A stretch of 64,000 nt of DNA from a virus (taxonomy: Duplodnaviria; Caudoviricetes), in the IMG/VR virus record IMGVR_UViG_3300008107_000089, positions 868-64,867 of that record, one strand, 5' to 3'. Made by a program: the position numbers and the translations under genes. The first letter of the stretch is position 1, and the number at the start of each line of letters is the position of its first letter. The notes below the pieces were generated by a model, which searched no databases, had not been told where the DNA came from, and saw nothing but the letters and a program-made list of their open reading frames with translations. Of this stretch, positions 34,662 to 34,992 are shown one piece after another.

Positions 34662-34713
34662 GTTATTATATTTACAGGGAATTGATATTTGTATATATTT
34701 ATAAATGCAAACA

Positions 34714-34854
34714 ATGAAAACAAACATATTACATATGACCAACTGGCAAAACGAACGTAGAAATACGTTGGCGCTAGGGTATTGCTTTAGTTCGATTAAT
34801 GCGGACGTGCAAGGCAAACCTAGTACCCCAGGGCGATGTAATGTGATTGTATAA
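34714..34854 (+). CDS. Putative leader (attenuator) peptide MKTNILHMTNWQNERRNTLALGYCFSSINADVQGKPSTPGRCNVIV
   Basis: 46-codon ORF (in-frame ATG also at 34705) after TATATTTATA. Contains all 20 amino acids and overlaps the antiterminator segment. Confidence 0.6.
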   Translation: MKTNILHMTNWQNERRNTLALGYCFSSINADVQGKPSTPGRCNVIV

Positions 34855-34882
34855 GTATAAAAATACAAATCAACATAAAACA

Positions 34883-34917
34883 AAGCCCTGGATTCAAAAC
34901 CCAGGGCTTCTTTTATT
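34883..34917 (+). terminator. Attenuator-type terminator upstream of the tRNA array
   Basis: AAGCCCTGG...CCAGGGCTT followed by CTTTTATT. A competing CCAGGGC lies at 34828-34834. Confidence 0.75.
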
Positions 34918-34919
34918 CT

Positions 34920-34992
34920 GGTGATCAAGCTAACTTGGTAGAAGCGCGAGACTGAAAATCTCGAGGACTCAGCTCGGAACTGAGGTTCACCA
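34920..34992 (+). tRNA. tRNA-Phe(GAA)
   Basis: Cloverleaf; anticodon arm CGAGA-CTGAAAA-TCTCG; atypical T loop. Confidence 0.8.

Follow-up and report, generated by a model that had tools for sequence, protein, structure and literature searches.

Leader-peptide attenuators are known from enterobacteria, where they include trpL, hisL, leuL and pheL as well as the multivalent thrL and ilvL, and where leuL makes use of rare codons. Here we describe a candidate attenuator of this general kind in a phage genome fragment, IMG/VR record IMGVR_UViG_3300008107_000089 (Duplodnaviria; Caudoviricetes), of which a window of 64,000 nucleotides (nt; positions 868 to 64,867 of the record) was analyzed; all coordinates below are those of this window. 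The element consists of a 46-codon leader open reading frame (ORF) and an intrinsic terminator, and it lies ahead of an array of 23 tRNA genes. Like the trp/his-type attenuators, it has a short leader, a terminator just before the genes that would be regulated, an antiterminator that uses the 5' arm of the terminator and, as we infer, a read-out of ribosome position; like leuL, its leader uses rare codons. In contrast to the trp/his type, the phage leader has no tandem run of regulatory codons and uses each of the 20 amino acids about once, its competing word is part of the ORF and thus precedes the stop codon rather than following it, its helix between regions 1 and 2 (the 1:2 helix) is not conserved, and the genes that it would regulate encode phage tRNAs rather than biosynthetic enzymes.

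The closest logic in print appears to be that of the upstream ORF (uORF) of whiB7 (wblC) in mycobacteria and other Actinobacteria, where a uORF and an antiterminator/terminator switch answer many amino-acid and tRNA shortages (PMC10274678). According to that report, the composition of the uORF sets which amino-acid shortages are sensed, a single Trp codon is enough, and the M. smegmatis uORF lacks only Cys (PMC10274678). The likeness is one of logic only: the two elements have no sequence relation, whiB7 belongs to a cellular host and its output is a transcription factor for drug resistance (PMC10274678), and tRNA genes rather than a whiB7-type gene lie downstream of the phage leader. In that report, the whiB7 uORF varies widely and is enriched in Ala, whereas the phage peptide is conserved, is enriched in no residue and would control tRNA genes. 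Similarly, the Anabaena trn operon is reported to be a long spare tRNA array that is silent until translational stress and is controlled by the repressor TrcR (PMC10272220). It shares with our proposal a spare, near-complete tRNA set that is switched on when translation is impaired. It differs in that a protein repressor, TrcR, acts at the promoter of a cellular array, whereas the phage would rely on a leader peptide and a terminator.

T-box riboswitches also bring about tRNA-related transcription antitermination in leader RNA, but a T-box recognizes a single uncharged tRNA by direct binding, independently of translation; when 34000-42500 was compared with Rfam at E up to 1, no family, the T-box included, was found in the leader region 34000-34919. 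Full-text literature searching turned up no publication that describes a leader peptide ahead of phage tRNA genes. To our knowledge, the control of phage tRNA genes is largely unknown, and the reason for near-complete tRNA sets in large phages is debated.

The leader module and its competing RNA structures

We favor, with modest confidence, the view that this element is a ribosome-mediated transcription attenuator with broad codon sensing at the head of the phage tRNA array, and that slow decoding at any codon of the leader probably lets transcription continue into the phage tRNA genes. Sequence comparison established the ORF and its composition, the terminator, the pairing that competes with it, the spacing of these parts and their link to tRNA arrays. 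The parts of the module are as follows.

34671..34703, + strand: promoter-like region, TTTACA (34671-34676), 17 nt, TATATT (to 34699), matching at 10/12 positions
34714..34854, + strand: leader ORF, 46 codons plus stop, with all 20 amino acids by codon 36
34720..34746, + strand: region 1, 5' strand of a long helix, with 34826-34853 as its partner in the minimum-energy fold
34754..34769, + strand: small hairpin with a GAAA loop, within the ORF over the codons for E-R-R-N-T and present in the RNAalifold consensus
34828..34834, + strand: region 2, CCAGGGC, which repeats the terminator 3' arm; its pairing with 34885-34891 is the putative antiterminator
34883..34919, + strand: intrinsic terminator; 34883-34891 and 34901-34909 are the arms, after which T-rich sequence extends to tRNA-Phe at 34920
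34920..37459, + strand: tRNA array proposed as gated, 23 tRNA genes with tRNA-Phe(GAA) first

An initial annotation of this DNA had proposed the same ORF, with all 20 amino acids by codon 36, a promoter-like site before it, and terminator arms with a T-rich tail before the first tRNA. These coordinates were all confirmed, the promoter-like match falling at 34671-34699.

Relatives of the module were found in several ways. A peptide profile of the leader matched 35 proteins in a 5.8-billion-protein collection and 31 cluster representatives in a 1.84-billion library, and it gave 14 further loci in each of two contig collections. A 21-nt word from the odd tRNA-Phe gene matched 15 loci, ten of them full modules and one a diverged module (L043). 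The neighboring DUF4494-like gene led to 32 loci, with the leader in one phage only (two records, 82% nucleotide identity), and the GenBank phage collection gave no match to the leader in near and distant DNA searches or in a peptide search, so that these searches point to no cultured phage that carries it. After duplicate removal, 22 distinct DNA modules and 57 distinct peptides were available, and 19 distinct ORFs were aligned. All 22 modules had a promoter-like word, a small ORF, a terminator whose stem lay 20-30 nt past the stop codon and a tRNA-Phe-like gene. tRNA genes followed the leader in 40/40 related loci, the Phe-like gene first, then Lys, Trp, Arg, Cys, etc. The L043 leader is diverged and has 40 codons. 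A DUF4494-like gene and the same promoter word precede it, and it lies ~200 nt upstream of its terminator, after which come another tRNA and then tRNA-Phe. One public metagenome protein, P0047 (173 amino acids), has four tandem stretches like the middle of the leader profile (E = 2.7e-8).

The frame was open in 19/19 distinct homologous ORFs, whereas 2-9 stops interrupted the other two frames. In these 19 copies, entropy was 0.73, 0.80 and 0.99 at codon positions 1, 2 and 3, the third being the highest. The median ratio of nonsynonymous to synonymous substitution rates (dN/dS) among leader homologues was 0.5, and it was below 1 in 94% of pairs. Two copies had a GTG or a TTG start at the same place. 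An in-frame ATG is also present at 34705; since it is not retained in relatives, we take 34714 to be the conserved start. Thus, the ORF appears to be a conserved and translated leader, and this coding signature suggests that it is translated in vivo. A Shine-Dalgarno-like word preceded only 3/64 long ORFs of the phage, compared with 8.4% of random 17-mers. With such words scarce throughout the window, their lack before the small ORF is uninformative, and the host likely initiates translation without Shine-Dalgarno pairing. The initial annotation had called the ORF unannotated. This did not hold everywhere: some public sources contain the ORF family as a called gene, labelled 'hypothetical protein'. 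The leader peptide had no match to any Pfam or PHROG family, and AlphaFold2, run on a 40-row alignment, gave a predicted local distance difference test (pLDDT) score of 53.9 and no confident fold; the peptide may nonetheless have a function.

The terminator has a G+C-rich stem of 9 bp, and 7/11 of its pairs in the family alignment showed changes on both sides. Its competitor, the pairing of region 2 with the 5' arm, uses the same arm, so that the two structures are mutually exclusive. As the initial annotation had suggested for CCAGGGC and GCCCTGG, this antiterminator was recovered in the family, where it covaried through at least five arm variants and in various reading frames. The 5'-arm variants that covaried with region 2 were GCCCTGG, GTCCTGG, CTCCTGG, GCTCTGG, GGCCCCG and AAGCCTC, and the matched pairs were CCAGGGC/GCCCTGG, CCAGGAC/GTCCTGG, CCAGGA/TCCTGG, CGGGGC/GCCCCG and GGGGCTT/AAGCCTC. 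Overall, 80% of the cells were paired and two pairs were doubly changed; the covariation score was matched by 1/500 shuffles, and sliding the partner by one column lowered pairing to 43-53%. In an alignment-free duplex test, the ORF tails paired with their own arm at -13.65 kcal/mol and with other arms at -11.54 kcal/mol, and 0/20,000 permutations were as low; shuffled ORF tails gave a mean of -6.8 kcal/mol. Because the region-2 word stands in differing reading frames among homologues (CCA GGG vs AAC CAG GAC), the constraint must act on the RNA. The distance from region 2 to the stop codon was 3-22 nt (median 17) in the 22 modules, and that from the region-2 word to the terminator arm was near-constant at 36-47 nt. 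Covariation lends good support to an attenuator architecture and to its association with tRNA arrays.

Upstream of the ORF, the promoter-like region contains the phage word TATATATTTATA at 34692-34703. The 10-mer TATATTTATA occurred 7 times on the + strand (6006, 19931, 25897, 31842, 34694, 39119 and 60014) and 0 times on the - strand; 6/7 copies were intergenic, and four lay 20-28 nt before an ATG. It is probably the phage's own promoter element, and most of the 19 aligned modules keep the promoter word ahead of the ORF. A promoter downstream of the terminator, which the initial annotation had named as a finding that would contradict attenuation, was looked for, and from 34703 to the end of the array there was no promoter-like (sigma-70-like) site and no copy of TATATTTATA. 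The 8-mer TATAAATA, which we take to be the T4-type late promoter word, was rejected as a promoter here: its copies, 5 on the + strand and 13 on the - strand, did not mark gene starts.

The leader was touched by contigs from four metatranscriptome libraries. One 169-nt RNA-library contig corresponded exactly to 34707-34874 (beginning at ~34706/34707), and a 250-nt contig from a relative spanned the ORF and the terminator and ran into tRNA-Phe. These contigs are weak hints, since DNA may be present in such libraries and assembled contigs show no starts, ends or levels; stretches that they leave uncovered likewise carry no information.

Amino-acid and codon content of the leader

The codon diversity of the leader is not common in the genes of this phage. 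All 20 amino acids were present in 26/14,403 windows of 36 residues from its 65 long ORFs, and in 231/13,753 windows of 46 residues (1.7%), at least 19 being present in 9.8% of the latter. There is no tandem run of one codon in the leader, and each amino acid occurs ~1-4 times. These window statistics were chosen post hoc, and it is the family comparison that carries the argument. Of the 57 distinct family peptides, 47 contained all 20 amino acids and 54 contained at least 19; the full set was kept by 35/38 close members and by 13/21 more distant representatives. The 20th amino acid preceded the codon of the antiterminator word in 20/22 modules, with medians at codon 36 and codon 38, respectively. 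On this comparison, carrying all 20 amino acids ahead of the antiterminator word is a trait of the family.

The best single piece of independent evidence for the all-20 content appears to be L043. Although only the two ends of this leader correspond to the rest of the family, its first 28 codons already include all 20 amino acids. None of 14,923 gene windows of the phage contained all 20 within 28 residues, and an independent-residue model gave P ~5e-5.

The codons of the leader also match the tRNA set that follows. The codon pairs listed in the initial annotation (CGT/AGA, TTA-TTG/CTA, AGT/TCG, GGG/GGC and ATA/ATT) were all found. Its claim that they correspond to the downstream isoacceptors held in that, under strict wobble rules, leader codons serve all 23 distinct anticodons of the array; it failed for the AGT codons, which have no matching phage tRNA, the array lacking tRNA-Ser(GCU). 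Coverage rises to 24/24 tRNA genes provided that the second tRNA(CAU) reads AUA. The alignment gave no decision on this reading, and the figure of 23/23 anticodons is independent of it. All 24 tRNA classes were covered in 0/13,753 gene windows of 46 codons, the best being 23 classes (n = 23 windows), and an independent-codon model put the probability of such coverage by chance at P = 1.6e-4 to 2.5e-4. Four phages with near-full arrays had leaders that cover 23/23, 22/23, 23/24 and 20/21 distinct anticodons; the null expectation was a mean of ~17.5 of 23, with P from 2e-4 to 5e-3 among the four.

Codon choice in the leader was atypical as well. Its codon adaptation index (CAI) was at the 1.2th percentile among 336 gene windows of the phage, and 21% of its codons end in G, compared with 7% in genes. 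In all 19 leaders the CAI was below the 16th percentile, and rare codons were used throughout the ORF.

How ribosome position may set the switch

In the mechanism that we propose, transcription would begin slightly upstream of the ATG, from a promoter of the TATATTTATA type that belongs to the phage itself, and a ribosome would translate the 46-codon leader, in which the first ~36 codons supply every amino acid and a codon for each array tRNA, many of them rare. A fast ribosome would cover or abut CCAGGGC (codons 39-41) while RNA polymerase makes the terminator; with CCAGGGC masked, the hairpin would form and transcription would stop 10 nt before tRNA-Phe. Upon slow decoding upstream, CCAGGGC would be free to pair with the emerging 5' arm of the terminator, and, the terminator being blocked by this antiterminator, the whole tRNA set would be transcribed. 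The outcome would depend on a kinetic race, in which a ribosome at the end of the ORF blocks the antiterminator and a ribosome delayed upstream leaves the antiterminator word free.

This proposed polarity, in which stalling would lead to read-through, was modeled by folding of the nascent RNA with a ribosome mask (a -15/+14 nt footprint). The predicted antiterminator had P ~1 with the A site at codons 1-34 and P = 0 at codons 36-45. The earlier suggestion that full translation masks the antiterminator was thus borne out in this model for A-site codons 36-45, though not at the stop codon, and folding with masked segments, which it had also put forward, gave the expected result for the nascent RNA but not for the full-length RNA at equilibrium (see below). 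A kinetic race is favored because equilibrium folding favors the terminator whereas nascent mask folding favors the antiterminator, and the near-constant spacing between the region-2 word and the terminator arm fits such a design.

What the switch would respond to is a further question, and pan-tRNA sensing is a plausible and testable answer. In its strongest form, the leader would be a selected 'tRNA census' that gauges the decoding speed of every amino acid and every phage tRNA class, so that any shortage turns the array on and a restored supply turns it off, in a homeostatic manner. Triggers could include, for example, host anticodon nucleases, host tRNA decay as infection proceeds, or codon use that differs between phage and host. 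We advance this form tentatively, as a real possibility that still falls short of probable.

Whether selection may have acted on the all-20 content as such was addressed by column shuffles of the peptide alignment. Twelve amino-acid types stand in columns that are at least 90% conserved. The all-20 content is to a good extent inherited, and the conserved core alone gives a chance of about one in three of all 20 per lineage. With all rows included, 34/36 peptides contained all 20, compared with 21.3 expected; at <60% identity, the figures were 7/8 observed and 2.9 expected (P = 0.001). In a stricter shuffle, four atypical rows were dropped, two of them failures, and at <70% identity 12/12 peptides contained all 20, compared with 8.4 expected (P = 0.008). 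Furthermore, where W, Y or F was lost from its conserved site, the same residue was found elsewhere in 4/8 cases, compared with ~15% extra copies otherwise.

Several observations weigh against a broad sensor. First, the all-20 rule is soft: 10/57 members are short of 1-5 amino acids, most often Glu, so that the leaders which the initial annotation had suggested looking for in related phages do exist, in 22 modules with a covarying switch, but do not keep the full set without exception. Second, without the four atypical rows and at <60% identity, 6/6 peptides contained all 20 vs 4.35 expected (P = 0.12), and the tests for selection on 'all 20' as such are therefore mixed; there was also no compensation for E like that seen for W, Y and F (3/8 vs 15/49). 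Third, the core keeps its order of residues, although the sampling of codons alone would not require this. Fourth, 5/32 of the loci anchored on the DUF4494-like gene begin a tRNA array at most 7 nt past that gene, with no leader, whereas the remaining loci mostly had no tRNAs nearby; such leaderless arrays in relatives show that the leader is not obligatory. Fifth, a ribosome whose A site holds the stop codon only abuts region 2 and leaves it uncovered, the word lying just behind the ribosome. Sixth, folding of the full-length RNA at equilibrium favored the terminator at all ribosome positions except codons 2-10; sensing of codons 11-34 hence rests on the kinetic argument.

A further point concerns the 1:2 helix, in which region 1 is a possible anti-antiterminator in the folding model. 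The region folded better than shuffled sequences (z = -5.2, and -3.6 without the terminator), and the 1:2 helix in the window had an energy of -20.8 kcal/mol. Across the family, however, cognate pairs gave -13.0 kcal/mol, non-cognate pairs -11.5 and shuffled heads -11.0 +/- 3.2, and the RNAalifold consensus lacked the helix, containing only the terminator and the small hairpin with the GAAA loop. The 1:2 helix thus does not appear to be a robust family feature, and the state without translation is unclear. As for the GAAA-loop hairpin, one of its pairs was AU in 9 copies, GC in 4, GU in 3 and UA in 1. The hairpin is partly conserved and may be a pause hairpin; it is deleted in one relative (L047) and is thus not essential.

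The same switch could instead read general translation activity rather than each tRNA, either with reversed polarity, translation opening the 1:2 helix and thereby giving read-through, or through stalls at the first ~ten codons only. The all-20 content would then be inherited conservation of the peptide, with no sensing role. Five of the points just listed would be expected in that case: the equilibrium preference for the antiterminator at A-site codons 2-10 only, the free region 2 with a ribosome at the stop codon in a simple mask, the lack of significance (P = 0.12) in the strict selection test, the amino acids absent from 10/57 members and the conserved order of core residues. The 1:2 helix that such a logic needs is, however, weak or absent in many homologues. 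Also against it, the 20th amino acid stands just before region 2 in 20/22 modules, rare codons are used throughout the ORF, and in L043, where the core has diverged, all 20 are nevertheless present by codon 28. We consider this explanation unlikely, though it deserves to be kept in view.

It is more doubtful still that the ORF encodes a small phage protein with its own job, the hairpin being its terminator or 3' stabilizer and the tRNAs being produced by constitutive leak-through and RNase P, with the CCAGG pairing tuning terminator strength or mRNA decay regardless of ribosome position. The conserved peptide core, its dN/dS of 0.5 and the presence of the family as a called gene in public data would suit a protein, but the peptide had no confident AlphaFold fold and belongs to no Pfam or PHROG family, and the phage's genes come nowhere near it in composition or in agreement with the tRNA set. 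Likewise, with a tRNA 10 nt past the tail, RNase P would trim read-through RNA, but the module always heads a tRNA array, and the word that competes with the terminator is part of the ORF and keeps a set distance to both the stop codon and the stem, which is a hallmark of ribosome-read switches. Finally, an untranslated structured RNA or processing signal, e.g. a partner RNA of the nearby Ro60-like protein, would draw on the folding z-score of -3.6 without the terminator and on the Ro60/TROVE gene 2.6 kb downstream, but it is very improbable given the lack of an Rfam family in the leader region, a consensus fold limited to the terminator and one small hairpin, and the 19/19 open frames with most variation at third positions and GTG/TTG starts at the same place. 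A Y-RNA-like RNA for Ro60 in particular was rejected because the frame is open, the codons vary as in a coding sequence and Rfam gave no match.

The phage, its tRNA genes and the meaning of the module

The window represents most of a 64.9-kb fragment of an uncultured phage, with 33% G+C and every long ORF on the + strand. Its family-B DNA polymerase is nearest to the enzymes of T4-like cyanophages, with 36% identity to that of Microcystis phage Mel-JY01, and the source is an uncultured, T4-like freshwater phage. ARAGORN found 24 tRNA genes in the window, of which 23 form the one array at 34920-37459, and a tmRNA. The features downstream of the array are as follows.

37553-39091: Ro60/TROVE gene, 3' of the tRNA array
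39453-39914: RNase H-like DUF458 gene, 3' of the tRNA array
40858-40947: tRNA-Leu(UAA), outside the array, further downstream
41289-41673: tmRNA, beyond the array

The T loop of the tRNA-Phe gene (34920-34993) is unusual, and no other gene of the array scores lower with Rfam (43.5 bits). ARAGORN called tRNA-Phe in just 9/22 module segments; compensatory changes in its stems were visible nonetheless. Between tRNA-Phe and tRNA-Lys, a mini-ORF and a hairpin (35008-35070) are retained, with changes, in the alignment with one relative (L013), and a spacer of the array at 35308-35363 gave a weak tRNA-like Rfam match (E = 0.26).

If a broadly sensing attenuator does control this array, the near-complete tRNA set of the phage would be an on-demand backup that is switched on by slow decoding. 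Leader-peptide attenuation would thereby extend from single amino-acid pathways to the whole decoding system, and the module, at only ~230 nt, could be turned into a portable reporter for translation stress. That dozens of uncultured freshwater phages have it suggests a recurrent solution rather than a one-off.

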